The translations under genes and the position numbers were made by a program. 64,000 bases of DNA. It comes from Thermodesulfobacteriota bacterium. GTDB lineage: Bacteria > Desulfobacterota_D > UBA1144 > Nemesobacterales > Mycalebacteriaceae. Numbering within the stretch: the first letter of the stretch is position 1; each line of letters starts with the position of its first letter. The DNA lies in NCBI GenBank assembly GCA_965226585.1, contig OZ245366.1, forward strand, positions 1 through 64,000, written 5' to 3'. The notes beneath the pieces were generated by a model. That model was not told where the DNA came from. It did no database searches and saw nothing but the letters and a program-made list of their open reading frames with translations. Below, in pieces: positions 33,369 through 64,000 of the stretch.

Positions 33369-34355
33369 CTAATGACTTCTCTCCGCCGCGAAATCCGCGA
33401 GCGTTAGAAGCGAGCGTTTGTAACTGCCGTCCGGAAAAAATGATATGGCATCTTTCGCGCTCAAGACATGGCTTTTCGCCTTGTCAAAAGTCGCCTTCAC
33501 TCCTCCGTAATCCGCAACAAAACGCTTTATCGGAACCGTGTCGCACTCTCCCCCCGATACAAGTTTTTTCAAATGACCCTCAAACTCCACGCGCACACGG
33601 GCGGGAGCGTTGGAAATGGCTTTGAGAAGCGGAAGCGTCATCTTCGCCCCCTCTATGTCAAGCCCCGTGTCTTTGCCAAGCTGCTCGGTTGAAGACGAAT
33701 AATCAAGAGCATCATCGGTAAGCTGAAACGCTATCCCAAGATTCAACCCGTACTCGGCAAGCGCGTCCGTTCTGCCGTTTGCCGAACCCGCAAGTATGGC
33801 TCCCATCACGGCGCAACACTCTATCAGCGAAGCCGTCTTCTCACGCACAATCTGCATACAGGCGTTTTCGTCAATCTCCATCATCTCCTTCTCGCCCATA
33901 ACCTCTATCATCACACCCTCTATCACCCTCTTCGCGGCGGAACAAAAAACCTTGGAAAGCCGCGAGTCATCACACGAAAGCACAAGATTCAAAGCGCGTA
34001 TCAAAAGCGCGTCTCCGGCAAGAACGGAACACTGATTTCCCCAAACCGTGTTTGCAGACTTCCGCCCCCTTCTTGTGGAAGCATTGTCTATCACGTCATC
34101 GTGAAGCAAAGACGCTATGTGCGTGAGCTCAACGGCGGCGGCTGAGGCAATTCTGTTCTCGCCGTCCTCAAGCCCGCATATTCCGCTTGAAAGAAGAAGC
34201 ACCGAGGGCCTGAGCCGCTTGCCGCCGCTTCCAACTATGTATGACGATATGCTGTGAACGAGCTCTACGGGAGACTGGCAGTTCTTCACCAGTTCATCCT
34301 CAACAAGACTCATGTCGTTTGAGATAATCGCGGAGTTGTCCGTATCTGTCTGCAT
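33369..34355 (-). CDS. ispB: Polyprenyl (octaprenyl-type) diphosphate synthase
   Basis: GGKRLRP, ASLLHDDVID..RRG, KTASL, AFQLTDDALD; ATG at 34355. Confidence 0.9.
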   Translation of the reverse strand: MQTDTDNSAIISNDMSLVEDELVKNCQSPVELVHSISSYIVGSGGKRLRPSVLLLSSGICGLEDGENRIASAAAVELTHIASLLHDDVIDNASTRRGRKSANTVWGNQCSVLAGDALLIRALNLVLSCDDSRLSKVFCSAAKRVIEGVMIEVMGEKEMMEIDENACMQIVREKTASLIECCAVMGAILAGSANGRTDALAEYGLNLGIAFQLTDDALDYSSSTEQLGKDTGLDIEGAKMTLPLLKAISNAPARVRVEFEGHLKKLVSGGECDTVPIKRFVADYGGVKATFDKAKSHVLSAKDAISFFPDGSYKRSLLTLADFAAERSH

Positions 34356-34444
34356 CGGGGTTAAATTATTGTCACAAAAGACTTTCAAGTCAAAACGGCT
34401 ATAATAACTCTCAAACATTCGCTCCCGCGAACCGGGGAATTGTC

Positions 34445-34876
34445 TTGAACTCATTTGACACCGCCATAGTAATTGCGTGCCTCGCGGCTTTCGCTCTGGG
34501 GCTTACGGGCAGAGGGCTTATCAGCCTGTCTTTAACGCTTGCGGCGGGCGCGGCGGGCATCGCGGCGGGATACCTTTTTGGTCCCGCAATCGCGGAACGG
34601 GGATGGGCTTGGAACGAATGGGTCGGCGGACTTGCGGTGTTTCTCGCGGTGTTTGCGGCGATTGCCGCCCTCCGCTCGGTCGCGGGCAAAGTTCCCGGAC
34701 TGAAAGTTCTGATGCGGGTTGCAGACGGCATCATAAGCGCGGGCGTTGTGGCGGTGGCGGCGGTGTTTCTGTTTGAAGCGGCGGAAGCGATGAGAGGACA
34801 GGAGAAAACAGAGGATGCGGCAAAATCTCTTATACGCGGAAAAATTATTGAACTGTATGACGGAAAAGAAAAATGA
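34445..34876 (+). CDS. CvpA-like membrane protein
   Basis: N-terminus MNSFDTAIVIACLAAFALGLTGRGLI and about four hydrophobic segments; overlaps the fbp start. Confidence 0.55.
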   Translation: MNSFDTAIVIACLAAFALGLTGRGLISLSLTLAAGAAGIAAGYLFGPAIAERGWAWNEWVGGLAVFLAVFAAIAALRSVAGKVPGLKVLMRVADGIISAGVVAVAAVFLFEAAEAMRGQEKTEDAAKSLIRGKIIELYDGKEK

Positions 34877-35889
34877 AAAGCATAACAACTCTTAACAAAC
34901 ACATCATATCTTTGTTCGGAATTGACAAGTTTCACGGCGGGGTTTTCACAATCCTGCGGGAACTGGTTTTTGTCTCCAAACTTATGCACCGCGATGTGAA
35001 CAAGGCGGGCATCGTGGAAGGCATCATCGGCGGAACGGGCAATATCAACTATCACGGAGACTCAACACAGAAACTGGACATACTGGCAAACGAGCGCGTA
35101 ATCTCAACCCTTGAAGCGGGCGGCGAGTGTTGCGGTGTGGTGTCGGAAGAAAACGACAACATAGTCGCCCTGAAAGGCGAGAACTCTGAAAAAGGGGAAT
35201 ACGTGCTTGCCATAGACCCGCTTGACGGCTCTTCAAACATAGACGTGAACGTTACGGTGGGCATTATCTTTTCCATATACAAACGCAAATCCAAAACCCC
35301 CGGACCCTGCGGAGAGGAGGATTTTCTCAGGCGCGGACGCGAGCAGGAACTTGCCGGATACATAGTGTTCGGTTCGTCAACGATGCTTGTTTTTACCGCC
35401 GGCAAAGGGGTGAACGGATTTACGCTTGACCCGTCAATAGGCGAGTTCTGCCTGTCGCATCCGCAGATACGAATACCGGAAAACGGCGAACTTTATTCCG
35501 TCAATCACGGGCTTTCATCGGCGTTTCCCGGCTGGGTTAAGCGGTTCATTGAATACTGCGGAGAAACAGACGCCAAAACGGGAAGACCCTACTCGTGCAG
35601 ATACACCGGCTCTATGGTGGCGGACATACACAGAAATATGCTCAAAGGCGGAATCTTCATGTATCCCGCCACCGCCAAATACCCGAAAGGAAAACTGCGC
35701 CTTTTATACGAATGCAACCCCATCTCTTTCATAGTTGAGGAGGCGGGCGGCAAAGCGGTCTGCGGCGGTGAAAACATAATGGACATAGAGGTGTCTTCAA
35801 TCCACCAGAGAACACCGATATTTGCGGGCTCAAAAAATCTTGTGGATATCGCGGAAAACTTTCGCGGCGAAGTGGAAAAAGGAAAGTGA
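34873..35889 (+). CDS. fbp: Fructose-1,6-bisphosphatase class 1
   Basis: QKLDILAN, SEE, DPLDGSSNIDVN, RYTGSMVADIHR, GKLRLLYECNP. Confidence 0.96.
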   Translation: MKSITTLNKHIISLFGIDKFHGGVFTILRELVFVSKLMHRDVNKAGIVEGIIGGTGNINYHGDSTQKLDILANERVISTLEAGGECCGVVSEENDNIVALKGENSEKGEYVLAIDPLDGSSNIDVNVTVGIIFSIYKRKSKTPGPCGEEDFLRRGREQELAGYIVFGSSTMLVFTAGKGVNGFTLDPSIGEFCLSHPQIRIPENGELYSVNHGLSSAFPGWVKRFIEYCGETDAKTGRPYSCRYTGSMVADIHRNMLKGGIFMYPATAKYPKGKLRLLYECNPISFIVEEAGGKAVCGGENIMDIEVSSIHQRTPIFAGSKNLVDIAENFRGEVEKGK

Positions 35890-39352: not shown

Positions 39353-39354
39353 GG

Positions 39355-39531: not shown

Positions 39532-39539
39532 CACCATTC

Positions 39540-40010
39540 CGTCATTCCGTGCTTGACACGGAATCCAGTATTCAACTGGCTGACCAATACTGGATTCCTG
39601 CTTTCGCAGGAATGACGAGAGGCGGCAATGGAATGACACTTCCCACTTCCGTCATTCCGTGCTTGACACGGAATCCAGTATTCAACTGGGTTACCCAATA
39701 CTGGATTCCTGCTTTCGCAGGAATGACGAGAGGCGGCAACGGAATGACACTTCCCACTTCCGTCATTCCGTGCTTGACACGGAATCCAGTATTCAACTGG
39801 GTTACCAATACTGGATTCCTGCTTTCGCAGGAATGACGAGAGGCGGCAATGGAATGACACTTCCCACTTCCGTCATTCCGTGCTTGACACGGAATCCAGT
39901 ATTCAACTGGCTGACCAATACTGGATTCCTGCTTTCGCAGGAATGACGGAGGGGGCAGGAATGACGGAGGGGGCGGGAATGACGGACAAAGGGCAACGGA
40001 ATGACGGAGG
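39540..40010. repeat. Repeat locus 4: four units (39540, 39650, 39761, 39871; period 110-111) plus G-rich tails
   Basis: Central variants CTGACC, GTTACCC, GTTACC, CTGACC; constant linker AGAGGCGGCAAYGGAATGACACTTCCCACTTC. Confidence 0.95.
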
Positions 40011-40015
40011 GGCGT

Positions 40016-40813
40016 ATGAGTAAAACAATATCAATTCTCGGTTGCGGCTGGTTCGGGCTTCCGCTTGCTTCGCGCCTTGCCTCCGCCGGGCACAAAGTTA
40101 TGGGCTCAACAACAGACCCCATGCGAAAAAACGAAATCCAAAAAGCCGGCGCGCAACCCTTTGTTATCAAACTTGAACCCGAACAAAACGCGGGAAACAA
40201 ACCGTTCTTCTCATCAGACATCACAGTCGTCAACTTCCCGCCCCGCCGCCGTGATGACATAAAAACCCACCTCGCCGGACAAACCCGCTCGCTTATGAAC
40301 GCTCTGGCGGACGGCGGCGCGGGCTTTGTAATCCTCATAAGTTCAACCTCAGTCTATGCAGACCTCGGAAGAGTTGTAACCGAAGAAGACTTCACAACCG
40401 GAGAGCCGGAAAAAGCGTCCGGCTCCGCGCTCAGGGAAATGGAACAAGCTATGGCGGAAGGCGATTTTGATTTAACCGTCCTCCGCTTTGCCGGGCTTAT
40501 CGGCTACGACAGAGACCCGCGCAGATTTCTTAAAAAAAGACCGGCGGCAGACCGCCCAGATCGCCCCGTGAACCTGATACACCGCGATGACTGCGTGGAA
40601 ATAACCGCGCAAATTATAGAGAAAAACATACGGGGCGAAACCCTTAACGCCGTCTCAGACAGCCACCCGTTTAGAAGCGAGTTCTATTTTAGCGAAGCAA
40701 AAAAAGCGGGAGTGGAACCGCCGGAGTTCAAAAAAGCGGAAGGATGGAAAATAGTGTCGGGAGAAAAACTGAAAAAAACGCTTAACTACAACTACAAAAA
40801 AAACCCGCTCTGA
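40016..40813 (+). CDS. NAD(P)-binding SDR/epimerase-family oxidoreductase
   Basis: ILGCGWFG, ISSTSVY, LRFAGLIG..R.P, VNLIHRDD. Confidence 0.85.
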   Translation: MSKTISILGCGWFGLPLASRLASAGHKVMGSTTDPMRKNEIQKAGAQPFVIKLEPEQNAGNKPFFSSDITVVNFPPRRRDDIKTHLAGQTRSLMNALADGGAGFVILISSTSVYADLGRVVTEEDFTTGEPEKASGSALREMEQAMAEGDFDLTVLRFAGLIGYDRDPRRFLKKRPAADRPDRPVNLIHRDDCVEITAQIIEKNIRGETLNAVSDSHPFRSEFYFSEAKKAGVEPPEFKKAEGWKIVSGEKLKKTLNYNYKKNPL

Positions 40814-40825
40814 AAAACGGCGGGT

Positions 40826-45025: not shown

Positions 45026-45748
45026 ATGAACACAGACTCAAAAGCGCCGTTTATCAGGCATCTCGCGGAACTCAGAAAAGCGGTTTTGCGGCCTGTTTTG
45101 CTTATCATAGTTTTTTTCATTCCGTGTTATTTTGTCCGTTTTGACATCCTGCGTTTTGCGGTTGAGCCGGTGGTTTCGGCTTTGCCTGAGGGCGGCGGTT
45201 TAATTTTCACCAAGCCGGGCGAGGGTTTTGCGGCTCTTGTGATGTCGTCTTTATTTGCGGCGTTCATGCTTGCCCTGCCGTTCACGCTTTACAGTTTGTG
45301 GGGTTTTATCGCGCCGGGATTAAAGAGGGGTGAGCGGAGGAGTGTGGCGATTTTCGTATTTGCGGGAACGGTTCTTTTTTGCGCGGGTGTATTTTTCTGT
45401 TACCGGTTAGCCGCTCCGCGAGCGTTGGAGTTTTTGCTTTCAGAGCATTCGTCTGATTTTATGACGGCGATGCCGTCTGTTGGGCAGTCGCTGTCGTTTT
45501 TGCTGACGTTATGTTTCAGTTTTGGCGTTGTGTTTGAGTTTCCGCTTGTGGCGTTTCTGCTTTCAAGGTGGGGAGTGGTAAGCGCGAAGGGTTTTGCGGG
45601 TGGAAGGAAATACGCTTATGTGGCTGGGGCGATGGCGGCGGCGGTGATAACGCCGACTACTGATATTGTTTCCATGATGTTTCTGCTTGTGCCGCTTGCG
45701 GTGTTTTACGAAGCGGGAATTGTTACGGCAAAGGTGTTTGGGAAGTAA
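45026..45748 (+). CDS. tatC: Twin-arginine translocase subunit C
   Basis: HLAELR, LWGFIAPGL..GE, FGVVFEFP, AAVITPTTD, FYEAG. Confidence 0.93.
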   Translation: MNTDSKAPFIRHLAELRKAVLRPVLLIIVFFIPCYFVRFDILRFAVEPVVSALPEGGGLIFTKPGEGFAALVMSSLFAAFMLALPFTLYSLWGFIAPGLKRGERRSVAIFVFAGTVLFCAGVFFCYRLAAPRALEFLLSEHSSDFMTAMPSVGQSLSFLLTLCFSFGVVFEFPLVAFLLSRWGVVSAKGFAGGRKYAYVAGAMAAAVITPTTDIVSMMFLLVPLAVFYEAGIVTAKVFGK

Positions 45749-45759: not shown

Positions 45760-46720
45760 CGTCATTCCGTGCTTGACACGGAATCCAGTATTCAACTGGT
45801 TAAGTAATACTGGATTCCTGCTTCCGCAGGAATGACGTTTTTCCCCACTTCCGTCATTCCGTGCTTGACACGGAATCCAGTATTCAACTGGTTAAGTAAT
45901 ACTGGATTCCTGCTTTCGCAGGAATGACGTTTTTCCCCTTTCCGTCATTCCGTGCTTGACACGGAATCCAGTATTCAACTGGTTAAGTAATACTGGATTC
46001 CTGCTTTCGCAGGAATGACGTTTTTCCCACTTCCGTCATTCCGTGCTTGACACGGAATCCAGTATTCAACTGGTTAGGTAATACTGGATTCCTGCTTCCG
46101 CAGGAATGACGTTTTTCCCACTTCCGTCATTCCGTGCTTGACACGGAATCCAGTATTCAACTGGTTAGGTAATACTGGATTCCTGCTTTCGCAGGAATGA
46201 CGTTTTTCCCACTTCCGTCATTCCGTGCTTGACACGGAATCCAGTATTCAACTGGTTAGGTAATACTGGATTCCTGCTTTCGCAGGAATGACGGGGAGGG
46301 ACAACGGAATGACGTTTTTCCCACTTCCGTCATTCCGTGCTTGACACGGAATCCAGTATTCAACTGGTTAAGTAATACTGGATTCCTGCTTTCGCAGGAA
46401 TGACGGGGAGGGACAACGGAATGACGTTTTTCCCCACTTCCGTCATTCCGTGCTTGACACGGAATCCAGTATTCAACTGGTTAAGTAATACTGGATTCCT
46501 GCTTTCGCAGGAATGACGGGGAGGGACAACGGAATGACGTTTTTCCCCACTTCCGTCATTCCGTGCTTGACACGGAATCCAGTATTCAACTGGTTAACCA
46601 ATACTGGATTCCTGCTTCCGCAGGAATGACGAGGGGGCAATGGAATGACGAGGTGAGGGGCAATGGAATGACGAGGGGGGCAATGGAATAACGAGGGGGG
46701 GGGGGCAACGGAATGGCGGA
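45760..46720. repeat. Repeat locus 5: nine units (45760, 45852, 45943, 46034, 46125, 46216, 46328, 46441, 46554) plus G-rich tails
   Basis: Period 91-92 then 112-113; central variants TTAAGT x3, TTAGGT x3, TTAAGT x2, TTAACC. Confidence 0.97.
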
Positions 46721-49700: not shown

Positions 49701-52700
49701 TACCCGTTGCTTTTGAATCTATACCCGCAACAAATGCTCCGGGCGCGGCGGCGTTCAGGTTTCTTCCGATTGCCACACTGTTCACGGCGGTTGCGTATGC
49801 GTTTCTTCCGATGGCGATAGACGCCTCGGCGGATGCGGTTGCTCCCACACCAATTGCTATTGCTTGAATTCCGCTGGCGGTGGAGTCTTTACCTATTGAT
49901 ACCGTGTCCACTCCGGTTGCCGCCGCGTTGTGTCCGAAGGCGGACGAGTTCCGACCGCTGGCGACTGAGAAACTGCCAACCGCCGTTGTGTCAAAATGTG
50001 TCGCCGCCGAGTTGTAGCCGAAGGCGGATGAGTTTATGCCCGTTGCTTTTGAAAATCCGCCGACCGCCGTTGTGTCGTCTGCGGCGGTGAGAGAGTTAAC
50101 ACCAATGGAAACCGAGTTGTCTCCCGTGTAATCGGATGTGAAGATTGACCCCGGATATCCGGGACGCTGGATAAAACCGCCTCCCGCGTTGGCGTTGTTT
50201 CCAATCGCGATTGAACTTCCCCCCCACACATGGGCGTTAAGACCTATTGCGACAGAGGCAACCGCATTTCCCGTAACATTTGAGATAGTGCCGAACGCTA
50301 TTGAGTTTGTCCTGAAACGGCTCACAAAAGCGTAACGTCCAATCGCCGTTGATGACGATGCGGATGATTGCGCCGAATCACCGATTGCTATTGCGTGCAA
50401 GCCGAAGACCGCTCTTGAGTTCGCGCCAACCGCCACACTGTTCACTCCGTGTGCGGCAAGGGCGTTCGCGCCCGCCGCGAAACCGCCCGCTGAAAATGCC
50501 CTCGCGTTGTAGCCAATGGCAATCGCCTTTATTGAAGTCGCCTGCGCCCTTTCACCGAAAGCAATTGAAGATTCGCCAAGTGCTTTTGAGTCAAGACCAA
50601 TCGCCACCGCGTTATCCGCCGCTGTGAGGGCGTTCACACCCATCGCTATGGAGTTGTCTCCCGCGTAGTCTCCAAGTTCCCCTTCCGCCAGATTGCCGGC
50701 CGCCTTTTGCACAATGCCGTTGCCCGCGTTCGCGCCGTTACCGATGGCGATTGAGCCGGTTCCCCACGCGATTGAGTTGAGACCAACCGCAACTGCGGCG
50801 GAAGCGTTTCCGGCGGCGTTTGCGAATGAGCCGATTGCCACGGTGTTTGTTCTGAACGGATTCACGGAAGCGTTTCGTCCAATCGCCGTTGATGCCGAGG
50901 CGAGAGAAGCGGCGGAATCACCGATTGCTATTGCGTAGTCTCCGCCCGCAGTAAGCGAGTTATGACCCACGGAGATTGAGAAAAATTCTATGGATTGCGC
51001 GTAGGGTCCAATCGCAACAGACGCGCCGCCGTTCACTATTGCCGAATAACCCACCGCAACCGCCAGAGGTTTGTTTGTCCACGATTCCGCGCCAATGGCT
51101 ATTGACGCAAAAGCCGACATACCCGCGTTTGCGTTCGCGCCGAAGGCGAGAGCGTCATTCGCGCCCGCGAAAGAGTCAATACCAATCGCCATGGCGTTTG
51201 TGCCGAAGGTTTTGTCGCCGTCATAAAGGATGTTTCCGTCTTCATCTCTGGCGATTTGATACGAATACCCGGTACCCCCGGCGATAATTTCGGTGGGGAA
51301 GGTGGTAATAATGTTTCCTTCTCCGTCTTCAAAGATAAGGTTTCCGTTCCTGTCTTTAACAACGTTTCCGAAAATGTCTCTGGCGACTATGGCTGTGGAT
51401 GTGTTTGCCGAGGATATTTCGGTCGGGATGACAAATCCGGCGGGGAAAGTGGTAACGATGTTTCCGTATTGGTCGCTGTACACAATGTTTCCGTTCCTGT
51501 CTTTAACAACGTTTCCGTACCTGTCTTTGGAAACTATGTATGTTCTGGTGTATGTGGGGAGGTTCACGTCTGTGTTTGGACGAAAGACCATCAGGGGAAC
51601 CCTGCCGCCCGCAACGGCGTTTTGACCGAAGGCGATGGCGTTTCCTGCAAACGTTTTTGAGTTTGTTCCGATAGACACGGCGGCATAGGCGTTTGAGTAT
51701 GTGGTGGCTTTTTCACCGATGGCTATTGAACTGTCTGCAAATGCCGTTGAGCGGTGTCCAAAAACGGACGCTCCGTTTCCGTAGGCGGTTGTTCTCGCGC
51801 CGTAGGCGGATGATTTGTGTCCGGCGGCTTCAGAGAGGTAACCGAATGCGGCGGATTCAATACCCGTTGCCGAAGTGTTTATACCCGAAACGGTTGAACC
51901 GTTGCCCGTTGCTTTTGAATCTATACCCGCCACAAATGAACCCGGCGCGCTGGCGTTCAGGTTTCTTCCGATTGCCACACTGTTCGCGGCGGTTGCGTAT
52001 GCGTTTCGTCCGATGGCGATTGACGCCTCTCCGGTTGCGTTTGCTCCCACACCAATCGCTATGGCGTCTATTCCCGTGGCGGTTGAGTCTTTACCTATTG
52101 CTATGCTGTCAAGCCCAAGCGATTGCGCGTTGTGTCCGAAGGCGGATGAGTTTGTTCCCCGCGCCCATGAGGAAGAACCAACGGCGGTTGAGTTGCTTCC
52201 CGCAACGGTTTTTTGCCGTGTGCCGTCTGCGTAGAGGTTTTCCCCGTACTGTGTTTCATAAACAATATTTCCGTGCTCATCTCTCACTATTTTAGTTACG
52301 TTCGCAACTACATTTGTATATACCGGGTTTCCGTTCTCGTCTGTTACGAGTTGCACAGTCGGGGTCGCAGAATCGTCTTCCACATATTCATATACCTGCT
52401 CTCCGGCTGCGTTAAGAACCGGGTCGTATTGGGGAATTCCTTCCACATCAAAAACCTGATTTCCGTCTGCGTCAAGTCTCGGTTCATATTTCGGCACACG
52501 TATGGTTTTGGGATAAACAAGTTCCGTTTTCTGCACCAATGTTGTTTCCTGCACGGTAACGGTTTTCGGCACACGGGTTGTAACGGCTCCGGCGGTGGCG
52601 TTCAGTCCAATCGCCACTGAGTTATGCCCGAAAGAGCGGGCGTTATAACCAAACGATGAAGTTCCGTTTCCCCATGAGGCGGAGTTATAACCAACCGCCA

Positions 52701-55700
52701 CCGTCTCTGTTCCGAAAGCGAGTGATTCTGAACCTATGGCAATTGTTCCAATTCCGCGTGTGGCAACGGCGTTGTAACCCAAAGCGATTGAGAAAACTTC
52801 CGTTGATTGCGCGCCCTGACCGAGAGCGACAGACGCGCCGCCGTTTGCTATGGAGTTGAAACCAACCGCCACCGCAAAGGGGTTGTTTGCCCACGATTCC
52901 GCGCCAATGGCTATTGACGCCAAGCCCGATGAGTTCGCGCCCAAACCGAGGGCTATTGCGTCATCGGCTCCGGTGAAAGAGTCAACACCAATCGCTATGG
53001 AGTTTATGCCGAAGGTTTTGTCGCCGTCATAAATGATGTCTCCGTTTTCATCTCTGGCGATTTCATACGAGAACCCGATGGTAACTTCCTGAGGGAAAGT
53101 GGTAACAACATTTCCGTATTCGTCTTCATAGATAAGGTTTCCGTCTCTGTCTTTAACAACGTTTCCGTGCTCGTCTCTTTTGACTATGGCTGTGGATGTG
53201 TTTCCAATGGTAACATTGGTCGGGACAAAATTTGCGGGGAAAGTGGTAACGATGTTTCCGTATTTGTCGCTATAGACAACGTTTCCGTGTTCATCTTTAA
53301 CGATGTTTCCGCTACTGTCTCTGGCGACTATGTATGTTCTGGTAGTCTGGGGTTTGCCGTCTCCCGGCGGACGCAAAGTCAGCAGGGGAACTCTGCCTCC
53401 CGCGCTGGCGTTTTGACCGAGTGCGATTGAGTTGACTGAGAATGTTTGTGTGCTTGTTCCGATGGAGACTGATGAGGTTGCGGTTTCGTGTGCGACTGCT
53501 TTTGTTCCGATAACCACTGAATCGCGTCCGAGAGAGAACGCGGAATCACCGATTGCCATTGAGCTTACTCCCTGCGCGATTGCCCGTGTTCCAACCGCCA
53601 GCGCGCCGATTCCCCTTGCGGTTGCTCTAAAGCCGAATGCCGCCGCGTTGTCTGCCAGCGCGCTGGCTTCAAGACCGATGGCGATTGTGTTTGAGCCGCG
53701 AGTAACGGAGTTTCCGCCGATTGCGATTGAGTTAAGCGCGAGGACTTGAGAGTTCAGACCGAAGGCGATTGAGCCCGGAGAAGCCGCGCTTGATTCCTGT
53801 CCGATGGCGATTGAGCCCACCGCCGATGAAGAACTGTTCACCCCGAAAGCGAACGCGCCCGTAGCGGTCGCGCTGGCGTTTCGTCCGAGGGCGACTGAAT
53901 CCGTGCCGGATGATATGGCGTCTGAGGAAATCGCGACTGCGCCGGCTCCGGTCGCGGTGGCGTTTGGTCCAAAGGCGATTGAGCCGGTTCCGGTTGCCAA
54001 TGTGCTATATCCGATGGCTATGGCGTTTCTCCCGGGCGAGGTTTGGCTTTCCCCGCCTGCCGAACCGGCAACTGCAAGATCTCCGATTGCTATTGTTCTC
54101 CACGACCGGGCGGATGAGTTTATACCAATCGAGGTGGCATTGATCGCACTCGCCAAGGCGTTGAAACCGAGAGCGGTCGCGCCACGCACGGCGGCGTCAG
54201 AGTATGCTCCTATCGCAACCGCTGACTTGGGGAGTATTGAAGTTCCGCCAGAACTACCTCGGTATCCCGCCTGCGCTTTGAAACCTATCGCAACCCCTAA
54301 GGGTCCTACGAGCACGCCACTGCCGACGCCGACTGAGCCTGAATCAGAGCGTGAAAGTGAATCCGTCGCCGTCACCGCTCTGGCGGTGGCGCCAATAATG
54401 ACTGATCCTTCCACGTTTGCGCTCGCCTTATAACCGATGGCTATGGCGTTTTCGGCACGCGCGTTTGCTTCAAAACCTACCGCGACCGTGCCCGGAGTCC
54501 CTATCTGTCCAGGAAGGGTGTTATCAAAAAATATAGTCTCGCCCGGATCCCCCGCCCTCGCGCCGGCTCCAATCGCAACTGAGTTTGCCGCGTTTGCCAC
54601 AGCGCCGGAACCAATGGCTACGGCGTCTGTCACGTTCGCATTCGCGACTGTGTACCATCCGAATATTGTGTTGTAAGCGGTTTGCTGTACATAAGTGTTG
54701 CCCACATACGCGCCCGCACCGAAGGCGATTGAATCCGCTCCGGTTGCTATCGCTCTAAAACCAATGGCGGTTGAAGTATTCCCAGTAGCTTGTGAATATG
54801 TTCCAATGGAGGTTGAGTCCTCTGCATTAGTTTGTGAATACGCTCCAATGGCGATTGAATTGTATAATCCTCCTAATCCGGAGCGTTCCATTGCTTTCGC
54901 GTTGTATCCAATCGCGATTGAATTCCGCGCCGTCGAATGTGCGAAACTTCCAATCGCGACTGATCTGTCTGCCGCCAGAGTGTTTGCGCCGACAGCAGTT
55001 GCGTTATGATGACGTGCGGTAGCGCGGGCGCCAATTGCAACTGCTTGAAGGTTGTCTGCAAAAGCCCTAAAACCTATGGCTGTGGAGTTGGTGGCTCCCG
55101 CCTGTGCTCCATAACCTATCGCAGTCGTGCCCTCGGCGCTTGTGTTTCCGAGTTCGCCGTTAGCCTGTCGCACAAAAATCGGCGGACTCGCCTTTGCCCC
55201 GCCTCCAATCGCGACTGAGTTTGACGCTCCTGCCTCAGCGCCGGAACCAATGGCTACGGCGTCTGTAGTATTCTTCATCGCAATTGTATGGGTGCCGCCT
55301 GTGTGAACCGCAGTTATCACGTTATAACTTCTAGCCACAAATGCGTTCAGACCAAAGGCGATTGAATTCGCTCCGAGAACATTCGCCTGAAAACCGATGG
55401 CGGTGGAGTGTACTCCGGCGCCATGAGCCCCGTAACCAAATGCGGATGCCCCCGCCGCGCTTGCGACCGAGTCCGTTCCAATCGCGGTTGTGTCAATAGC
55501 CGTTGCCATTGAGGTTGCTCCGTAGGCGGTGGCGTTCCATTGGGTCGCGGCGGCGTTCACTCCGGTTACGGTTGCGTTCATTCCGGCTACGACGGCTCCA
55601 AGTCCGATTACCACCTGTCCGGGAGCTGATGCATGAGTGTCGCGTCCAATGGCTATCGCGTCTTTTGCTGTCGCGCGCGCCCGAACTCCAATGGCTATGG

Positions 55701-56331
55701 AAGTCTCTCCGCTTGCGGTTGACGCCCCTCCAATAGCTATGGCGCCACCCCCCGTGACTGCGTTCGCTCTCTCTCCTATGGCTATTCCGGAAGTGGAGAA
55801 CACGTGCGCCCTGTAACCAAGGGCGACACTGCCCCGACCGTCTGCTTGGGCTGAGTATCCAACCCCCGTTGCATCGTGGTGTGTGGCGCGGGCTTCGATG
55901 CCAAACACGGTAGCGTTATGAACCTGACCATTCGCAAAATATTGAAATGACTGGCCATGAAACCGGGGGTCAACGCGTGCAGGGTTTCCCGGGTAGGAGC
56001 TCGGGTTGTTGACATCGATAGTAAATGTCGTTCTATTTGCCGCCGTCGCACCGGTACCGTAAACAAGACTGTCCTCAGCACAAGAACCAGTTGAAATAGG
56101 GTTTATGCCCGCGCCGGTCTCGAGACGCACTTGTTTGCACATTTCGGGCAAGTGTGCGCGACCACTCGTGCCATCAACGTTATAGAAATTGTACATGTCA
56201 TAAGTGGCATCGGTAGGACCGGTTTGCGCGAATGCCTGTTGTGGATAAGACAATGCGCAAACGGCAAAAAATGCCGCCAAGATTACGGAAATCCCTTTGT
56301 GTTTAGCTCTCAAGGCTCCCGTCAAATTCAA
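46738..56331 (-). CDS. Giant trimeric autotransporter adhesin (YadA-like, type Vc), 3197 aa
   Basis: Signal peptide ..PQQAFA, many xxA(I/V)G head repeats, coiled coil DKIDQHDRDIAALRRGVAMAAAL, four-strand anchor ending GLNFQW. Confidence 0.9.
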   Translation of the reverse strand: MNLTGALRAKHKGISVILAAFFAVCALSYPQQAFAQTGPTDATYDMYNFYNVDGTSGRAHLPEMCKQVRLETGAGINPISTGSCAEDSLVYGTGATAANRTTFTIDVNNPSSYPGNPARVDPRFHGQSFQYFANGQVHNATVFGIEARATHHDATGVGYSAQADGRGSVALGYRAHVFSTSGIAIGERANAVTGGGAIAIGGASTASGETSIAIGVRARATAKDAIAIGRDTHASAPGQVVIGLGAVVAGMNATVTGVNAAATQWNATAYGATSMATAIDTTAIGTDSVASAAGASAFGYGAHGAGVHSTAIGFQANVLGANSIAFGLNAFVARSYNVITAVHTGGTHTIAMKNTTDAVAIGSGAEAGASNSVAIGGGAKASPPIFVRQANGELGNTSAEGTTAIGYGAQAGATNSTAIGFRAFADNLQAVAIGARATARHHNATAVGANTLAADRSVAIGSFAHSTARNSIAIGYNAKAMERSGLGGLYNSIAIGAYSQTNAEDSTSIGTYSQATGNTSTAIGFRAIATGADSIAFGAGAYVGNTYVQQTAYNTIFGWYTVANANVTDAVAIGSGAVANAANSVAIGAGARAGDPGETIFFDNTLPGQIGTPGTVAVGFEANARAENAIAIGYKASANVEGSVIIGATARAVTATDSLSRSDSGSVGVGSGVLVGPLGVAIGFKAQAGYRGSSGGTSILPKSAVAIGAYSDAAVRGATALGFNALASAINATSIGINSSARSWRTIAIGDLAVAGSAGGESQTSPGRNAIAIGYSTLATGTGSIAFGPNATATGAGAVAISSDAISSGTDSVALGRNASATATGAFAFGVNSSSSAVGSIAIGQESSAASPGSIAFGLNSQVLALNSIAIGGNSVTRGSNTIAIGLEASALADNAAAFGFRATARGIGALAVGTRAIAQGVSSMAIGDSAFSLGRDSVVIGTKAVAHETATSSVSIGTSTQTFSVNSIALGQNASAGGRVPLLTLRPPGDGKPQTTRTYIVARDSSGNIVKDEHGNVVYSDKYGNIVTTFPANFVPTNVTIGNTSTAIVKRDEHGNVVKDRDGNLIYEDEYGNVVTTFPQEVTIGFSYEIARDENGDIIYDGDKTFGINSIAIGVDSFTGADDAIALGLGANSSGLASIAIGAESWANNPFAVAVGFNSIANGGASVALGQGAQSTEVFSIALGYNAVATRGIGTIAIGSESLAFGTETVAVGYNSASWGNGTSSFGYNARSFGHNSVAIGLNATAGAVTTRVPKTVTVQETTLVQKTELVYPKTIRVPKYEPRLDADGNQVFDVEGIPQYDPVLNAAGEQVYEYVEDDSATPTVQLVTDENGNPVYTNVVANVTKIVRDEHGNIVYETQYGENLYADGTRQKTVAGSNSTAVGSSSWARGTNSSAFGHNAQSLGLDSIAIGKDSTATGIDAIAIGVGANATGEASIAIGRNAYATAANSVAIGRNLNASAPGSFVAGIDSKATGNGSTVSGINTSATGIESAAFGYLSEAAGHKSSAYGARTTAYGNGASVFGHRSTAFADSSIAIGEKATTYSNAYAAVSIGTNSKTFAGNAIAFGQNAVAGGRVPLMVFRPNTDVNLPTYTRTYIVSKDRYGNVVKDRNGNIVYSDQYGNIVTTFPAGFVIPTEISSANTSTAIVARDIFGNVVKDRNGNLIFEDGEGNIITTFPTEIIAGGTGYSYQIARDEDGNILYDGDKTFGTNAMAIGIDSFAGANDALAFGANANAGMSAFASIAIGAESWTNKPLAVAVGYSAIVNGGASVAIGPYAQSIEFFSISVGHNSLTAGGDYAIAIGDSAASLASASTAIGRNASVNPFRTNTVAIGSFANAAGNASAAVAVGLNSIAWGTGSIAIGNGANAGNGIVQKAAGNLAEGELGDYAGDNSIAMGVNALTAADNAVAIGLDSKALGESSIAFGERAQATSIKAIAIGYNARAFSAGGFAAGANALAAHGVNSVAVGANSRAVFGLHAIAIGDSAQSSASSSTAIGRYAFVSRFRTNSIAFGTISNVTGNAVASVAIGLNAHVWGGSSIAIGNNANAGGGFIQRPGYPGSIFTSDYTGDNSVSIGVNSLTAADDTTAVGGFSKATGINSSAFGYNSAATHFDTTAVGSFSVASGRNSSAFGHNAAATGVDTVSIGKDSTASGIQAIAIGVGATASAEASIAIGRNAYATAVNSVAIGRNLNAAAPGAFVAGIDSKATGNGSTVSGINTQATGTESTATGYRAEAAGTFSSAYGGYAAAIDSNTTAVGHNASANNINGTAVGQNAATANGSVVINGVLTHLFDATAVGQNSHALSINSSAFGQGAASGIVILTYVDTTAIGQNANAVGNKTTALGQGSWAGGNVSTALGQIANTQMHNSVAVGQNAFASTFNSQGVNGVVVGQNAYVTDRDTTAVGQNSAAVKYNSTAVGQGAYASGANSSAFGQNASATGRDSIAVGKDAKASGKDSIAIGVNAHATNDGSIAIGRNAYAIAANSVAIGRNLNATGNGSFVAGIDAKADGNGAHAGGVETQATGNWSTATGYFAEAQGENTTAYGALAYARSDNSTSLGARSFAGSVITGTTSISGQNATSLGESANTTGWRSTSIGAGANTFRDGTQTFGDEANGRNYHFNGAIGSGREFGTGTPDEADVAYKFTGLGLYNDTAYYVVNSSSVHTSGTIRVHTGNTVLANGVLEPTYEFRTVYDYTEFEPDYQAQGEHDDFLYGHISEKKDESTRAGGATRITTVLGDGTLQTADFHFDAVDVLIGNAMGPETADQRVRTEIARVVAESNSGNSEEQEEARTAYLTALRDYLEYSDVKKHDKIDAERDSLLAAQNDFADEFGGVDRYTQAKLEEVLTLRPDPDPNTSLLGRTAYSYEGMGASDFQRQRWANLDVTGAPLGERHQTLSDQVLYKTDPGSYRYEQNRRIDSVLGTPSADKNSSVPAKDIRFDRTGQLYEQENYYESRQVAGYDVADVLGTHLGIQSERLTRGADLLAGFDADGDKWISRGELERGSENLSVRDAIYAYECFKEVNCADHQIKPSEIDETRNRREAQVIEEYIAAGTEDTNQRRIRNVEEFMTEEGRERLTSETLEALNETPLGSEPKRYGDLYERNAWVQDKIDQHDRDIAALRRGVAMAAALKSTHIEPGNRIGLDINFSEYEGDYGVSGSFGMRVTPNFQVHFAGATTNEFEERILRTGLNFQW

Positions 56332-56430
56332 AACAGATACCTCATAAAGATTTTCTACAAATCAATCAGAAAAATCGCGAGTGCCCCCGAAAACGACAGA
56401 GTGGGACATATCGCGAGATATACGGTGCTG

Positions 56431-56460: not shown

Positions 56461-56476
56461 GCATTTGCCCCCCTTT

Positions 56477-56712
56477 CGTCATTCCGTTGTCCCCCCCCTT
56501 TTTCGTCATTCCGTTGTCCTCCCGTCATTCCGTTGTCCCCCCCCGTCATTCCGTTGTCCCTCCTCCCGTCATTCCGTTGTCCCTCCCCGTCATTCCGTTG
56601 CCCCTCCCGTCATTCCTGCGAAAGCAGGAATCCAGTATTACTTAACCAGTTGAATACTGGATTCCGTGTCAAGCACGGAATGACGGAAAAAAAGACAAGC
56701 ACGGAATGACGG
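56477..56712. repeat. Repeat locus 6: six CGTCATTCCGTTG+C-rich minirepeats, one full unit (56608-56685) and a partial end
   Basis: Direct reading. Confidence 0.95.
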
Positions 56713-56720
56713 AACTACTA

Positions 56721-57860
56721 CTACCTTGCCACCCCATAAACAACCTCCAAACTCAACACCCTCAACCACCTTTTTCCCCCGTCCTCAAAAACCGCGTCCA
56801 CTCCCGCAAATCCCGCCGCCTCCATTGCCGCCATTCCGCCGTCTGTAACCACCTTCTCACCCGTCAACCGAATGGTAACAACACCCAAATCCTCTCTGCC
56901 CTTAACATCCTCAACCCCAACAACCTCCGCCCTTGTTCTTATCCGCTCATGCTCGCCCTTCTTCCCGCCCGCATAAAGCGTTTCCACAACATCACACGGA
57001 TATGTGGGGGCATTGTGCGCGCCGCTGTTCATTCCTATCTGCGGGGCATACGCAAAATCTCCGCTCACCGCCCCCTCGCACAACGCCTTTACCGCCCCGC
57101 CGTAGCCAATAAAAACAGACCCCGGAGTGTGATGGACTGCGGCGTCATTCATTGTGCTAATCTGCAACCAACTGAAATCCGCTAACGTTATCCCGCGCTC
57201 AAAACTTCCCTCAAAAACCGCCCCCGGCTTTAACTCCTCAAACGCAACCCCGCCGCCCTCTTTCGGCAAAACTCCCGCCTCTATCGGCAAAGGCAAAACC
57301 GCATCTGTTATGTCTATTTTTTCAGGCGTTTTTTGTATCGTGCTTGATTTGTCGTAGGTTTTGCCCTTTTCCGCCCTTACAAGCACTTGCCTTGTGTAGC
57401 GTAAAACCTGTTCGCCGCGCTGGTTTTCGGCGGTGGTTTGGACTTGAACGGAGCCGTTTTTCGCGCCGTCTTTTCTGAACTCCACCCCTAAGACTTCGGA
57501 TTTTGCTTCTATCAAATCCCCTTCAAAAACCGGAACACCGAACACAAGCCCTGAATACGACAGGTTTGCGATGGCGTTAAAAGAAACATCGTGAACACTC
57601 AGCCCGAAAACTGTGTTGAACACAAACCCTCTGCTGACAAGGGCGGATGAGGTTATACCGAAGCGGGTTTTTTTCTCTTGCGCTTGGGGGTCTGTATAGC
57701 CCAATTTGGTGGAAAGTTCGGGATTTGCGGCAAGCATTTCCGCCCCGAATTTGTTGATATACTGCCGGTTTCTCAAAGGCGTAATCCGAACCGCCCCGTG
57801 ATGATAAACATCCCCCCGTGTAAAATCGCCAATATACCGCTGTGATGTCAGGTTTCTCAT
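56721..57860 (-). CDS. mch: Double hot-dog MaoC-family hydratase, mesaconyl-CoA (2-methylfumaryl-CoA) hydratase-like
   Basis: VFGLSVHDVSFNAIANLSY..PVFEGDLIEAKSEVLG..NQRGEQVLRYTR resembles the Mch N-terminal motif VFGKTVPDISLNAVANLGY (from recall). Confidence 0.62.
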   Translation of the reverse strand: MRNLTSQRYIGDFTRGDVYHHGAVRITPLRNRQYINKFGAEMLAANPELSTKLGYTDPQAQEKKTRFGITSSALVSRGFVFNTVFGLSVHDVSFNAIANLSYSGLVFGVPVFEGDLIEAKSEVLGVEFRKDGAKNGSVQVQTTAENQRGEQVLRYTRQVLVRAEKGKTYDKSSTIQKTPEKIDITDAVLPLPIEAGVLPKEGGGVAFEELKPGAVFEGSFERGITLADFSWLQISTMNDAAVHHTPGSVFIGYGGAVKALCEGAVSGDFAYAPQIGMNSGAHNAPTYPCDVVETLYAGGKKGEHERIRTRAEVVGVEDVKGREDLGVVTIRLTGEKVVTDGGMAAMEAAGFAGVDAVFEDGGKRWLRVLSLEVVYGVAR

Positions 57861-57871
57861 TGTTGTGCCTC

Positions 57872-58478
57872 CGTTGCCGCCGTCATTTCGTTGCCCCCTC
57901 CCGTCATTCCTGCCCTCCCCGTCATTCCTGCCCCCCCCGTCATTCCTGCGAAAGCAGGAATCCAGTATTGGTTAGCCAGTATAATACTGGATTCCGTGTC
58001 AAGCACGGAATGACGGAAAGGGGAAAGTGTCATTCCGTTGTCCCTCCCTCTCGTCATTCCGTTGCCCCCTCTCGTCATTCCTGCCTCCCCCCCCCGTCAT
58101 TCCTGCGAAAGCAGGAATCCAGTATTACCCAACCAGTTGAATACTGGATTCCGTGTCAAGCACGGAATGACGGAAAAAAAAGCCAAGCACGGAATGACGG
58201 AAAGGGGAAAGTGTCATTCCGTTGCTCCCCCCCCCGTCATTCCTGCGAAAGCAGGAATCCAGTATTGGTTAGCCAGTATAATACTGGATTCCGTGTCAAG
58301 CACGGAATGACGGAAAGGGGAAAGTGTCATTCCGTTGTCCCTCCCCTCGTCATTCCTGCGAAAGCAGGAATCCAGTATTACCCAACCAGTTGAATACTGG
58401 ATTCCGTGTCAAGCACGGAATGACAGAAAAAAAAAGCCAAGCACGGAATGACGGAAAGGGGAAAAACGTCATTCCCGT
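57872..58478. repeat. Repeat locus 7: four units (57938, 58095, 58235, 58348) plus tails
   Basis: Central variants alternate GGTTAGCCAGTATA / ACCCAACCAGTTGA (ABAB). Confidence 0.95.
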
Positions 58479-58485
58479 TCCCTTC

Positions 58486-60180
58486 TTACCTCCCCCGCTT
58501 CCAAGTCCCCTTCGTAATCCCCTTTTCCCTCAACTTATTCTTCTGCACCCTCTCCGTTCCAGTTTTCGGCAAACTCTTCTCAAACCTTATAAAACCCGGA
58601 ATCATAAACGCGGGCATAAGCGGCTCTAAAAACTTCACTATCTCCTCAGGCTCCGGCTTTGCCCCCTTTTTCGGCACTATCACCGCCATAACCTCATCCT
58701 CCGCATGACCGCCAGCCATCGCTTTTATTCCCACCGCCGCGCACTCCTCTATCTGCGGATGCGATGAAATTACCTTCTCAACCTCAAACGAACTTATGTT
58801 CTCACCCCGCCGCCTGATGTAATCCTTCACCCTGTCCATAAAATAGATGTATCCGTCCCCGTCCATCCACCCCGCATCGCCCGTGTGGAACCAGAAATTG
58901 CGGAAATCCTCAACCGTTTTTTCAGGCATTTTGTTGTAGTAGTGAAGCATTATGTTCGGAACTCGCGGACGCACCACTATCTCTCCCACCTCGCCGCGCT
59001 TTCTCTCCTCATCAGAATCAGGGTCAACTATCTTTATCTCATATCCGGGGGCTTCCTTGCCGCACGAGCCTACCCTGAACGGCTCGCCGGGACGCATCCA
59101 TGTACATTGCCCCGTTTCCGTGAGCCCGTAGCCCTCCATCAACTTTATGTTAAACCGCTTCATAAACGGCTCTATTATGTCGTGCGGAGCGGGCGAGCCG
59201 AGAACCAGTTTTACGCCGTGCGTTTTCTCTTCGGGCGATGGCGGCGTGTTCCACATAAAATACGAAACCGTGCCGACCGTGTTAAAACGGGTTATTTTGT
59301 AATCGTTCATCCACTTCCAGAAACGGCTCGCGCTGTATTTCTCCTCAACCACCGCAAGCGCGCCTTTGATTAGGCACGGGTACACCGTCAGCACCATTGC
59401 GTTGGAATGAAACAGCGGCAAACAGGTGAAATAAACATCTTTTGCCCCAACGTCCATTATCTCCGCGCAATTTCTCGCGCTGCTGTAATCCGCCGCGCTT
59501 GGGCGTATCACGCCCTTTGAACGCCCCGTTGTTCCCGATGTGAACATAAGCCGCGCCGGGTCTGTGAACAAAACCTCAACCTTCGGCTCTGCGGTGGAAG
59601 CCCCTTTCATAAAATCGCGGTAGGATTCCGTTCCGCTCTGTTTCCAGCCCTGCCGGTTGAACTTCGCCCCGCCGCCGCGCGTCCACACAACGGCGCGCCG
59701 GAGACTTTTCAATTCTTTTGCGATGGGCGGCATACGGTCAAGGTATTCTTCTGCGATAAACAGGGCGGCAGAGTCTGAAGAGTCTATGATGTATTGCAGA
59801 AATCCGGCTTTATACGCCGTGTTTATCGGAACCATCACCGCGCCCGCTTTGAGGATTCCGAACCATACAATCACATAGTCATCGGAATTGGGCATAAGCA
59901 CGGCAACTTTGTCGCCTTTGCCGACCCCGCGTTTTTTTAGGGCGTTTGCCACTTTGTTGGCAAGTGAGTTTGTTTGTTTGAAGCTGAGCGGTTTTTTCGC
60001 GCCGAATTTCAGGAAGGGTTTATCGCCGAGTTTCCGCGCTTGTTCTTTCAGCACACGTGGGAGTGTCCATTTTGTTCTGTCTTCTTTGAGGTACCACTCA
60101 ACATCAAACTTGCGGGAGCGTTTGAAGGTGATTGAATGGCGAAGGTCTTTTGTTTTGCGGCGGGGTTTTTTTGCGGGCAT
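58486..60180 (-). CDS. Acyl-CoA synthetase (CaiC-like AMP-binding enzyme)
   Basis: FTSGTTGRSKG, LPLFHSNA, EGYGLTE, WFHTGD, DRVKDYIRRRGENISSFEVE, LPKTGTERVQK. Confidence 0.9.
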   Translation of the reverse strand: MPAKKPRRKTKDLRHSITFKRSRKFDVEWYLKEDRTKWTLPRVLKEQARKLGDKPFLKFGAKKPLSFKQTNSLANKVANALKKRGVGKGDKVAVLMPNSDDYVIVWFGILKAGAVMVPINTAYKAGFLQYIIDSSDSAALFIAEEYLDRMPPIAKELKSLRRAVVWTRGGGAKFNRQGWKQSGTESYRDFMKGASTAEPKVEVLFTDPARLMFTSGTTGRSKGVIRPSAADYSSARNCAEIMDVGAKDVYFTCLPLFHSNAMVLTVYPCLIKGALAVVEEKYSASRFWKWMNDYKITRFNTVGTVSYFMWNTPPSPEEKTHGVKLVLGSPAPHDIIEPFMKRFNIKLMEGYGLTETGQCTWMRPGEPFRVGSCGKEAPGYEIKIVDPDSDEERKRGEVGEIVVRPRVPNIMLHYYNKMPEKTVEDFRNFWFHTGDAGWMDGDGYIYFMDRVKDYIRRRGENISSFEVEKVISSHPQIEECAAVGIKAMAGGHAEDEVMAVIVPKKGAKPEPEEIVKFLEPLMPAFMIPGFIRFEKSLPKTGTERVQKNKLREKGITKGTWKRGR

Positions 60181-60227
60181 TGGTTTCTCCCTTTTGTTTT
60201 TTTGTGGATTTGGAAAGTGTCAGTTTA

Positions 60228-60554: not shown

Positions 60555-60597
60555 GGGTGGGATTTTACCAGTTTTTTTATGGTTGTGTTTTTGATTG

Positions 60598-61183
60598 TGT
60601 CATTCCGTTGCCCCTCTCACCTCGTCATTCCGTTGTCCCTCCTCCCGTCATTCCTGCCCTCTCTCGTCATTCCTGCGAAAGCAGGAATCCAGTATTACTT
60701 AACCAATTGAATACTGGATTCCGTGTCAAGCACGGAATGACGGAAAGGGGAAAGTGTCATTCCGTTGCCCCTCTCACCTCGTCATTCCTGCGAAAGCAGG
60801 AATCCAGTATTGGCCAACCAGTTGAATACTGGATTCCGTGTCAAGCACGGAATGACGGAAAGGGAAAAAACGTCATTCCGTTGCCCTCCCTCCCCGTCAT
60901 TCCTGCGAAAGCAGGAATCCAGTATTACTTAACCAGTTGAATACTGGATTCCGTGTCAAGCACGGAATGACGGAAAAGGGGAAAAGTGTCATTCCGTTGT
61001 CCCCTCCCCGTCATTCCTGCGAAAGCAGGAATCCAGTATTACCCAACCAGTTGAATACTGGATTCCGTGTCAAGCACGGAATGACGGAAAGGGGAAAAAC
61101 GTCATTCCGTTGTCCCTTCCCCCTCGTCATTCCTGCCCTCCCCGTCATTCCTGCGAAAGCAGGAATCCAGTATTACTCAACCA
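60598..61183. repeat. Repeat locus 8: four units (60665, 60780, 60895, 61009) plus a half unit (61143-61183) fused to the thyX 3' end
   Basis: Direct reading. Confidence 0.95.
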
Positions 61184-62612: not shown

Positions 62613-62651
62613 AATGCTGAAATTCCGTCTGCCCCGTCAGTAAGCGGCGCG

Positions 62652-63428: not shown

Positions 63429-63450
63429 ATTGTAAAGTCCGTTAAGTCTG

Positions 63451-63480
63451 ATTGTATAGCCCGGCGGTTGTGAGTGTCAA
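63451..63480 (-). promoter_or_regulatory. Putative promoter of the sirtuin-like gene
   Basis: TTGACA-18 nt-TACAAT. Confidence 0.45.
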
Positions 63481-63499
63481 CCCGCGCCTGTCTCTTCCC

Positions 63500-63933
63500 C
63501 GTCATTCCGTGCTTGACACGGAATCCAGTATTCAACTGGTCAACCAATACTGGATTCCTGCTTTCGCAGGAATGACGACTCCTTTTCCCGTCATTCCGTG
63601 CCTGACACGGAATCCAGTATTCAACTGGTTAACCAATACTGGATTCCTGCTTCCGCAGGAATGACGACTCCTTTTCCCGTCATTCCGTGCCTGACACGGA
63701 ATCCAGTATTCAACTGGTCAACCAATACTGGGTTCCTGCTTCCGCAGGAATGACGACTCCTTTTCCCGTCATTCCGTGCCCGACACGGAATCCAGTATTC
63801 AACTGGTCAACCAATACTGGATTCCTGCTTCCGCAGGAATGACGACTCCTTTTCCCGTCATTCCGTGCCTGACACGGAATCCAGTATTCAACTGGTCAAC
63901 CAATACTGGGTTCCTGCTTTCGCAGGAATGACG
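63500..63933. repeat. Repeat locus 9: five units with an exact 89-bp period (63500, 63589, 63678, 63767, 63856)
   Basis: Linker ACTCCTTTTCC; central variant TCAACC or TTAACC; flanked by a 16-bp direct repeat. Confidence 0.97.
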
Positions 63934-64000
63934 AGAGCGGTGTCAACCCGCGCCTTCAACCTTTACCTTTGCCTTCCCTTTCGCAAACCGCACATCCAAC

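Follow-up and report, generated by a model that had tools for sequence, protein, structure and literature searches.

One-strand loss of cytosine around SRM repeat arrays and variable gene sites in a Mycalebacteriaceae chromosome

The first 64,000 nucleotides (nt) of contig OZ245366.1 (assembly GCA_965226585.1; Thermodesulfobacteriota, Mycalebacteriaceae), hereafter the window, contain nine arrays of the hairpin repeat SRM. On both sides of such arrays, silent sites of the neighbouring genes have lost cytosine on one strand, namely the strand whose 3′ end points towards the array. This loss is real, strong and well controlled, and it is chiefly a loss of C rather than a gain of G, with A>G changes as a minor component. 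The same halo surrounds AT-rich islets of at least 1 kb lacking the repeat and, more weakly, empty junctions that are filled in relatives. The unit that carries it is the variable site and not the palindrome.

Results

Cytosine loss on the strand pointing towards the arrays

The source genome is a single contig of 1,484,247 bases, the first 64 kb of which form the window. Genes were called by a purpose-written hexamer script (1,249 genes), which AT-rich genes escape. The expectation for each silent site was taken from third positions of the matching codon family far from arrays, and arrays were masked with a 40-nt margin before the flanks were scored. We call the strand with its 3′ end towards a site "inward" and the opposite strand "outward". 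S is the logarithm of the observed/expected ratio of inward C divided by that of outward C; negative S denotes C loss on the inward strand.

Within 1 kb of arrays, the inward strand retained 3059 of 4004 expected C at twofold sites (0.764, n = 6,721) and 4292 of 5554 at fourfold sites (0.773, n = 17,680), while outward C was at expectation (twofold 3995/3943 = 1.013; fourfold 5587/5573 = 1.002). The codon-family-corrected G-C residual was higher on the left than on the right in 49 of the 59 arrays scorable on both flanks. The mean left-right difference was 0.143, compared with 0.020 ± 0.011 at random gene junctions (z 10.7). The initial annotation had described a strand-composition switch centred on the arrays of the window; its G/C counts in 180-nt windows were reproduced exactly (12/12), and the sign change at silent sites, with codon family controlled, is found genome-wide. 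At 53 array gaps, inward C was depressed to 0.65-0.90 as far as 1.2 kb away, whichever way the genes ran, compared with 0.84-0.96 within 300 nt and 0.95-1.02 further out at 350 plain gaps. The polarity is independent of gene strand, as had been proposed, and is seen whether a gene reads towards the array or away from it. Both flanks were hit in both replichores (0.83 and 0.80; 0.73 and 0.75), which rules out a one-sided lagging-strand model.

The array halo doubled the T:C odds (x2.0) and decayed over 2.1 kb. Within 500 nt, the T:C odds on the inward strand rose x1.83 and the G:A odds x1.08. All dinucleotide contexts took part (inward C ratios 0.60-0.88); as no single one dominated, a motif-specific deaminase or methylase was rejected. 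Amino-acid-changing C>T was in slight excess (567/616 near vs 4850/6866 far), and G>A rose too.

Orthologues in the relative G001, of which 780 of 1,401 kb were compared, served as control. SRM clusters occur in this part only at its Ssn locus. In 623 orthologues, inward C of the source genome increased with distance from 0.67 over 0.76, 0.86, 0.86 and 0.85 to 0.95. In contrast, the aligned G001 codons were flat (0.95-1.05), so that the gradient is absent from array-free orthologues. Random junctions, both gene directions and the G001 orthologues together rule out chance or a gene-strand artefact.

To polarise the changes, the codon shared by G001 and a second relative was taken as ancestral, and sites near arrays and large islets were pooled. 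Ancestral inward C at twofold sites had changed in 29.5% of 560 near sites and 17.9% of 1,820 far sites (p 8e-9). For ancestral inward A, the values were 39.1% of 422 and 31.6% of 1,363 (p 0.006). Inward G was unchanged (20.1% of 512 vs 22.0% of 1,785). Fourfold sites are about 53% divergent between the species, which makes their polarisation noisy, with a clear direction. Thus, the polarised change is C>T on one strand with some A>G. The proposed G/T enrichment of the inward strand holds for C>T and the weaker A>G, with the correction that it arises mainly from C loss and not from G gain.

DNA nearly identical to the source genome is present in sponge and cave metagenome runs; no close strains turned up in the metagenome scan. 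In run X1, differences from the source genome numbered 85 in the 5,790 bases between arrays, 14 in the 1,570 bases to the right of the last array and 107 in 11,220 more distant bases, gene type being uncontrolled.

Islets and variable junctions without repeats carry the same halo

Several AT-rich islets headed a ranking of array-free gaps. All 23 islets of at least 1 kb without an SRM within 2.5 kb had negative S (mean −0.29), and islet-free arrays were as strong (47/55 negative, mean −0.27). Islets shorter than 1 kb were weak (21/32 negative, mean −0.06). The islet halo, with T:C odds x2.3 and a decay of 2.0 kb, agrees with that of the arrays. Islet edges held 32 SRM half-sites vs 40 ± 7 expected; together with the 40-nt mask and the opposite bias of the repeat leader, the missing excess rules out repeat remnants leaking into the flanks. 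Inside islets, 16 of 22 blocks had less C on the centre-pointing strand (p 0.025), a weak bias that would fit breaks within islets.

A scan of 65 of the 77 AT-rich open reading frames (20 stretches) matched many methylases and restriction enzymes as well as McrBC, Mrr, GmrSD, HNH, SIR2 and toxin-antitoxin families; 19 frames were unmatched. Restriction-modification and defence islets are dense for a genome of 1.48 Mb (Tsp45I-, TdeIII-, BsoBI- and CfrBI-like, type I, McrBC, Mrr, GmrSD, SIR2, Fic, PIN). Two weak matches to the uracil-glycosylase family also sit in such islets.

Junctions conserved in synteny with G001 gave S values of 0.00 and −0.01 (n = 319 and 113). Junctions empty in the source genome and filled in a relative were negative in 23 of 34 cases (mean −0.09, p 0.013). 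Segments present only in the source genome were negative in 15 of 19 cases if host-like (mean −0.15) and in 13 of 13 if AT-rich (mean −0.33). An empty junction of 43 bases (68632-68675 of the source genome) has S values of −0.38 and −0.57; it is filled by 1,584 bases in G001 and by 1,564 different letters in a contig of run X3. The nearby junction 65478-65628 is strain-variable: X1 carries 574 other letters, X3 skips 149, and the flanks have S −0.19/−0.17.

A blind scan for switch points placed 36 of its top 60 at known sites (21 at arrays, 15 at islets), compared with 14% for random positions. As the halo also occurs at islets free of repeats and at variable junctions that are empty, a special causal role of the repeats is not supported. 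The earlier argument from polarity stands, with variable sites in place of palindromes.

Arrays and genes of the window

The nine arrays, with S on the left and right flank, and the genes discussed below are as follows.

24092..24207: SRM/CGTC array of one head-to-head dimer; S left −0.24, right −0.05
25604..25703: SRM dimer in frame within an autotransporter open reading frame (24223-26934); S left −0.92, right +0.18
33092..33364: SRM array, 2+2 units; S left +0.07, right −0.41
39541..40005: SRM array, 4+4 units, 110-bp period; S −0.31 / −0.67; no array there in G001
45761..46672: largest SRM array, 9+9 units; S −1.04 / −0.37
56478..56710: SRM dimer with truncated 5′ half-copies; S −0.47 / −0.92
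57903..58475: SRM array, 4+4 units; S −0.60 / −0.73
60599..61168: SRM array, 5+4 units; S −0.76 / −0.09 (thyX side)
63501..63932: SRM array, 5+3 units; S +0.02 / −0.56
40001..40813, plus strand: gene right of an array; nearest third G9/C34 (G001 G22/C29)
45026..45748, plus strand: tatC; array-side third G33/C6 at silent sites (G001 G17/C19)
56721..57737, minus strand: MaoC-type dehydratase (Mch-like, mch) between two arrays; silent skew flips within the gene
58486..60180, minus strand: acyl-CoA ligase between two arrays; G28/C76 to G61/C33
61173..62612, minus strand: thyX; flank facing the 60599 array without halo

The array at 45761..46672 was the top switch point of the genome-wide blind scan, and its orthologous site in the relatives G002 and G005 is also an SRM. 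Flips within single genes between two arrays were confirmed and are absent or much weaker in the G001 orthologues. Silent sites of mch change from G17/C46 to G38/C20 across the gene (G001: G32/C32 to G40/C30), and the thirds of the ligase gene read G28/C76, G49/C60 and G61/C33 (G001: G52/C55, G63/C46 and G52/C49). The strongest opposite-polarity point of the whole genome lies at about 59709 in mid-ligase, where the halos of two arrays meet. The codon usage noted for the two ends of mch was found for GAG/AAG versus AAA/CAA/ACC, not for GAT (2 vs 3).

The thyX flank had been named as one exception. It is a real one, and four further flanks lack the halo over 900 nt: left of 33092 and 63501, right of 24092 and 25604. 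ThyX itself has 479 amino acids, about double the normal length, with two matched stretches. rpoD, chosen earlier as a neutral control, turned out to carry a switch of its own. This switch, near 4778 (gene at 3780-5180), has the same polarity (z 4.0), with no repeat or islet nearby; it falls in the poorly conserved middle of the protein, whose overall identity to G001 is 61%. The window also encodes a giant trimeric-autotransporter-like adhesin (46738-56331) and a large repetitive protein without NCBIfam match (27460-33027).

The dnaA gene lies at 270.8 kb of the source genome. GC skew of the replichores is nearly nil (silent G-C residual within about 0.03), and only a weak silent-site A-T residual changes sign, once around dnaA (about 270-300 kb) and once across from it (about 950-1000 kb).

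SRM repeats and candidate Ssn genes

Units in the window have the form CGTCATTCC-loop-GGAATCCAG and are arranged as head-to-head dimers. The hairpin is oriented (CGTCATTCC-loop-GGAATCYRG), one strand of the genome bearing 143 complete units and the other 144. The number of arrays is 68-70, varying with the script. Judged by their consensus, the window repeats correspond to the known CGTC REPs (Di Nocera et al. 2013, PMC3733652) and to NTS/SRM (Chenal et al. 2025, PMC11893778), as far as the available text of both papers describes them. The repeats are therefore already known, and the composition of their flanks is the question.

Two genes for single-domain GIY-YIG proteins (PF01541, E 8e-16) of 96 amino acids each are located at 1209374 and 1333306 and differ at 1 of 292 compared bases. 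Each of these candidate Ssn genes stands between SRM arrays, which is the Ssn arrangement. For the dimer at 57903, a fold into three hairpins is predicted on both strands, at about −28 to −30 kcal/mol. Full units are preceded by piled-up truncated copies of the 5′ half of the repeat, about 235 in total vs about 11 incomplete 3′ halves; such stacks are visible, for example, at 56478-56710 and 57881-57964 of the window. Arrays are also variable: for 23 of them the site is covered in a relative that bears repeats, and at 17 of these sites the relative has no SRM. Mean S was −0.28 for shared (6) and −0.23 for unshared arrays (17), with only 2 ghost sites.

The initial annotation had suggested SbcCD or a REP-associated nuclease as the cutter. 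SbcD (TIGR00619) gave no match in any of four genus genomes, namely the source genome, G001, G004 and G005 (94.6-98% complete), and did match in the outside genome G058; the candidate nuclease is Ssn. A REP-RAYT arrangement was not found in the source genome either, where one weak Y1 match (PF01797) at 1393395 lies about 22 kb from the nearest array. ComEC and DprA are present in 6/6 genus genomes. The source genome also carries RecJ, an AddAB-like pair and many restriction-modification genes, with methylase loci of the N6/N4 (9) and C5 (4) types.

Relatives

Repeats of G005 (20 elements) show the halo (0.80-0.91 vs 0.99-1.04) up to 1.5 kb, and those of G002 (25 elements) within 300 nt only. 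G004, with 28 single repeats, has the halo on the 5′ side, the 3′ side being occupied by AT-rich genes. Where a single G004 SRM has a G-rich tail, the genes 3′ of it are mostly AT-rich (silent GC 0.73 of expectation) and those 5′ of it host-like. This layout looks as if foreign DNA entered beside the repeat. The six elements of G001 had no halo, and G003 gave neither SRM nor Ssn matches.

Discussion

Relation to known systems

The closest parallel is found at human meiotic break hotspots (Hinch et al. 2023, PMC7615360). According to the available text of that study, the exposed strand is on the forward strand left of the break and on the reverse strand right of it, and C>N and A>N changes in the flanking 2 kb are unequal between the strands. 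Both systems share changes of C and A on the 3′-ended strand, mirror symmetry and a range of 1-2 kb. The break-and-resection geometry suggested in the initial annotation thus agrees in polarity and range with these hotspots. Unlike here, those are programmed eukaryotic breaks recorded in rare variants; here the record is fixed bacterial composition, and breaks are presumed.

The GRINS described in 2021 (PMC8256042) are duplicated stretches inside modular genes, for which the accessible part of the paper gives the mechanism as unknown. Like the halos, they are bacterial kilobase skews of G/T versus C/A, strongest at third codon positions and of both signs on one strand, and both are tied to recombination. 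In contrast to GRINS as described there, the halos affect single-copy genes; their centre is a site outside these genes, their polarity is fixed and they consist mainly of C loss. The repeat search of the window showed no duplicate of mch, the ligase gene or tatC of the kind that defines GRINS (>500 bp, >80% identity to a paralogue in the same cluster), and 22 of 24 non-array switch points are without DNA paralogue match. GRINS are further defined by correlated GC and TA skews, both >0.15; in the halos, C loss is strong, T gain moderate and A>G weak.

Ssn cuts single-stranded SRM a few bases 5′ of the motif and is inactive on double-stranded DNA (PMC11893778). Repeat consensus, head-to-head dimers and a 96-amino-acid GIY-YIG gene between arrays agree with the accounts of Ssn/SRM and CGTC REPs (PMC11893778; PMC3733652). 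The portions of these papers available to us contain no strand-polar halo, and Ssn was studied there on incoming DNA; PMC11893778 mentions lower orthologue identity beside dRS3 repeats and calls Ssn/SRM function outside Neisseria open. Transfer hotspots, as portrayed in the accessible text of Oliveira et al. 2017 (PMC5635113) and Torrance et al. 2024 (PMC11879095), are refilled by recombination at flanking core genes. They resemble our sites as variable slots with more recombined and more diverse flanks (a small effect in PMC11879095) and differ in that a strand-specific spectrum is absent from that text. Our literature search, in which subscription journals were poorly covered, found no description of a strand-polar halo at SRM/REP arrays or bacterial gene slots.

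Origin of the halo

Recurrent breaks or gaps at variable sites, 5′ resection and deamination of the exposed strand have, in our judgement, an even chance of being the correct explanation. Breakage and resection we infer from the halo, its strand, spectrum, reach and site classes, all of which are established here. Arrays or gene slots would be broken or gapped repeatedly, the 5′-ended outward strand would be chewed back and the inward strand left single. C deaminates much faster in single-stranded DNA than in duplex. The exposed strand would suffer C>U and some A>I, which would be fixed at fill-in. At arrays, the breaks might come from the host Ssn nuclease, by analogy with other species. At slots, newly integrated, unmethylated heterologous DNA might be restricted after transformation and repaired from a sister or donor copy; that such DNA can be restricted after replication is documented in the available part of PMC3573125. 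Resection may be the task of AddAB or RecJ, both of which have candidate genes. The halo would then be a slow record of many past events, and slots that are empty today may still carry it.

Several observations weigh against this explanation. Breakage is deduced from the composition of contigs, and polarity alone is compatible with a double-strand break, a nick, a gap or a stalled polymerase alike. Uracil glycosylases and MutS are both encoded. Larger arrays do not have stronger halos (rho −0.14, p 0.28). The blind scan placed 24 of its top 60 switch points at neither arrays nor islets; about 11 of them are other variable junctions, further islets, tRNA or tmRNA sites. Sorted by SRM orientation, the flanks give a mixed picture: in G004, 16 of 17 host-like 5′ flanks lose C of the SRM strand (3′ flanks are AT-rich), and in the source genome 6/6 monomer 3′ flanks are two-sided. 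G001 islets are weak (8/10 negative, −0.13, p 0.08) despite 8 methylase matches vs 9 in the source genome, and the halo-bearing G004 and G005 gave no Ssn match with the query used. Three outside genomes, each represented by 200-410 kb chosen around repeats, point in the same direction. G058 (47 scored elements, intact Ssn matches, SbcD) behaved the same as plain gaps, G033 (Poriferihabitaceae, 18 elements) was inconsistent and had no halo, and G035 (Pseudomonas sp. 286, 33 elements) gave a signal only in the first 100-200 nt. As none of them has a kilobase halo, the presence of SRM together with Ssn does not suffice, and halos of this range are for now a trait of the present genus. Elsewhere, the sign of the raw skew agreed at 7 of 18 Ssn loci with repeats and at 18 of 28 metagenome loci (mean 0.03), so that generality is unsupported. 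In the last 100 bases of G035 genes ending at an SRM, silent C was 0.50 and G 1.55 of expectation, compared with 0.86 and 1.17 at plain gaps.

Among the alternatives, a strand asymmetry of donor DNA during transformation, without a chromosome break, is unlikely. Incoming single-stranded DNA might span a heterology or be cut at an SRM by Ssn; the arm 5′ of the heterology would then remain single for longer, or serve as template instead of pairing, and its deaminated C would be fixed. The competence genes ComEC and DprA throughout the genus, the halo following variable slots, the action of Ssn on transforming DNA in Neisseria (as reported in the available text of PMC11893778) and the more frequent recombination of hotspot flanks (likewise for PMC5635113) are in keeping with this idea. 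However, if donor tracts simply stopped at the site, less outward C>T would be expected, and the data show more inward C>T (x1.83 vs x1.08 for G:A); moreover, a paired donor U:G would be repairable by the uracil glycosylases present.

Error-prone fill-in running outward, with A-C mispairs (C>T and A>G on the template) escaping mismatch repair as suggested for GRINS, seems improbable to us. It would account for the joint increase of C>T and A>G on one strand and for the even dinucleotide contexts, and error-prone copying is proposed for correlated skews in the accessible part of PMC8256042. However, C>T lies well above A>G, as deamination chemistry predicts, and MutS is encoded.

Little probability remains, too, for hairpins that stall replication without being cut. 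The template 5′ of the hairpin would be single-stranded, giving two-sided polarity, and islets would need a separate cause. The stable folding of dimers on both strands, the lack of a match to the hairpin-removing SbcD in 4/4 genus genomes as opposed to its presence in the halo-free G058, and the truncated 5′ half-copies, which suggest stalling and slippage, are compatible with such stalling. On the other hand, repeat-free islets give an equal halo. In 463 array-free gaps, hairpin energy and switch were uncorrelated (rho −0.03), which rules out hairpins in general as the cause. Finally, transcription, gene-end codon bias or selection on protein or RNA is highly improbable: plain gaps deviate weakly in the same direction within 300 nt and the Pseudomonas signal sits mostly at gene 3′ ends, but genes reading away are affected as strongly as genes reading in, orthologous G001 codons are flat, and transcription running out of AT-rich islets would be expected to affect the opposite strand.

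Significance

The footprint makes a hidden process measurable in a single genome. As the blind scan flags empty junctions that are filled in relatives, it could locate slots for defence and adaptation genes without a pangenome. Repeats and swappable cassettes roughly double the bias of adjacent housekeeping genes towards silent C>T. Furthermore, the results suggest a role of Ssn/SRM in the chromosome that can be tested, and they provide a definite hypothesis for the skews of GRINS, so far unexplained. We tentatively suggest, as a possibility that is still rather doubtful, that bacterial chromosomes can carry meiotic-like break-and-repair hotspots. These would be set by Ssn with hairpin repeats and by cassette restriction, each would rewrite 2 kb on one strand, and empty hotspots would be readable from one genome; GRINS might be the same footprint in modular genes.

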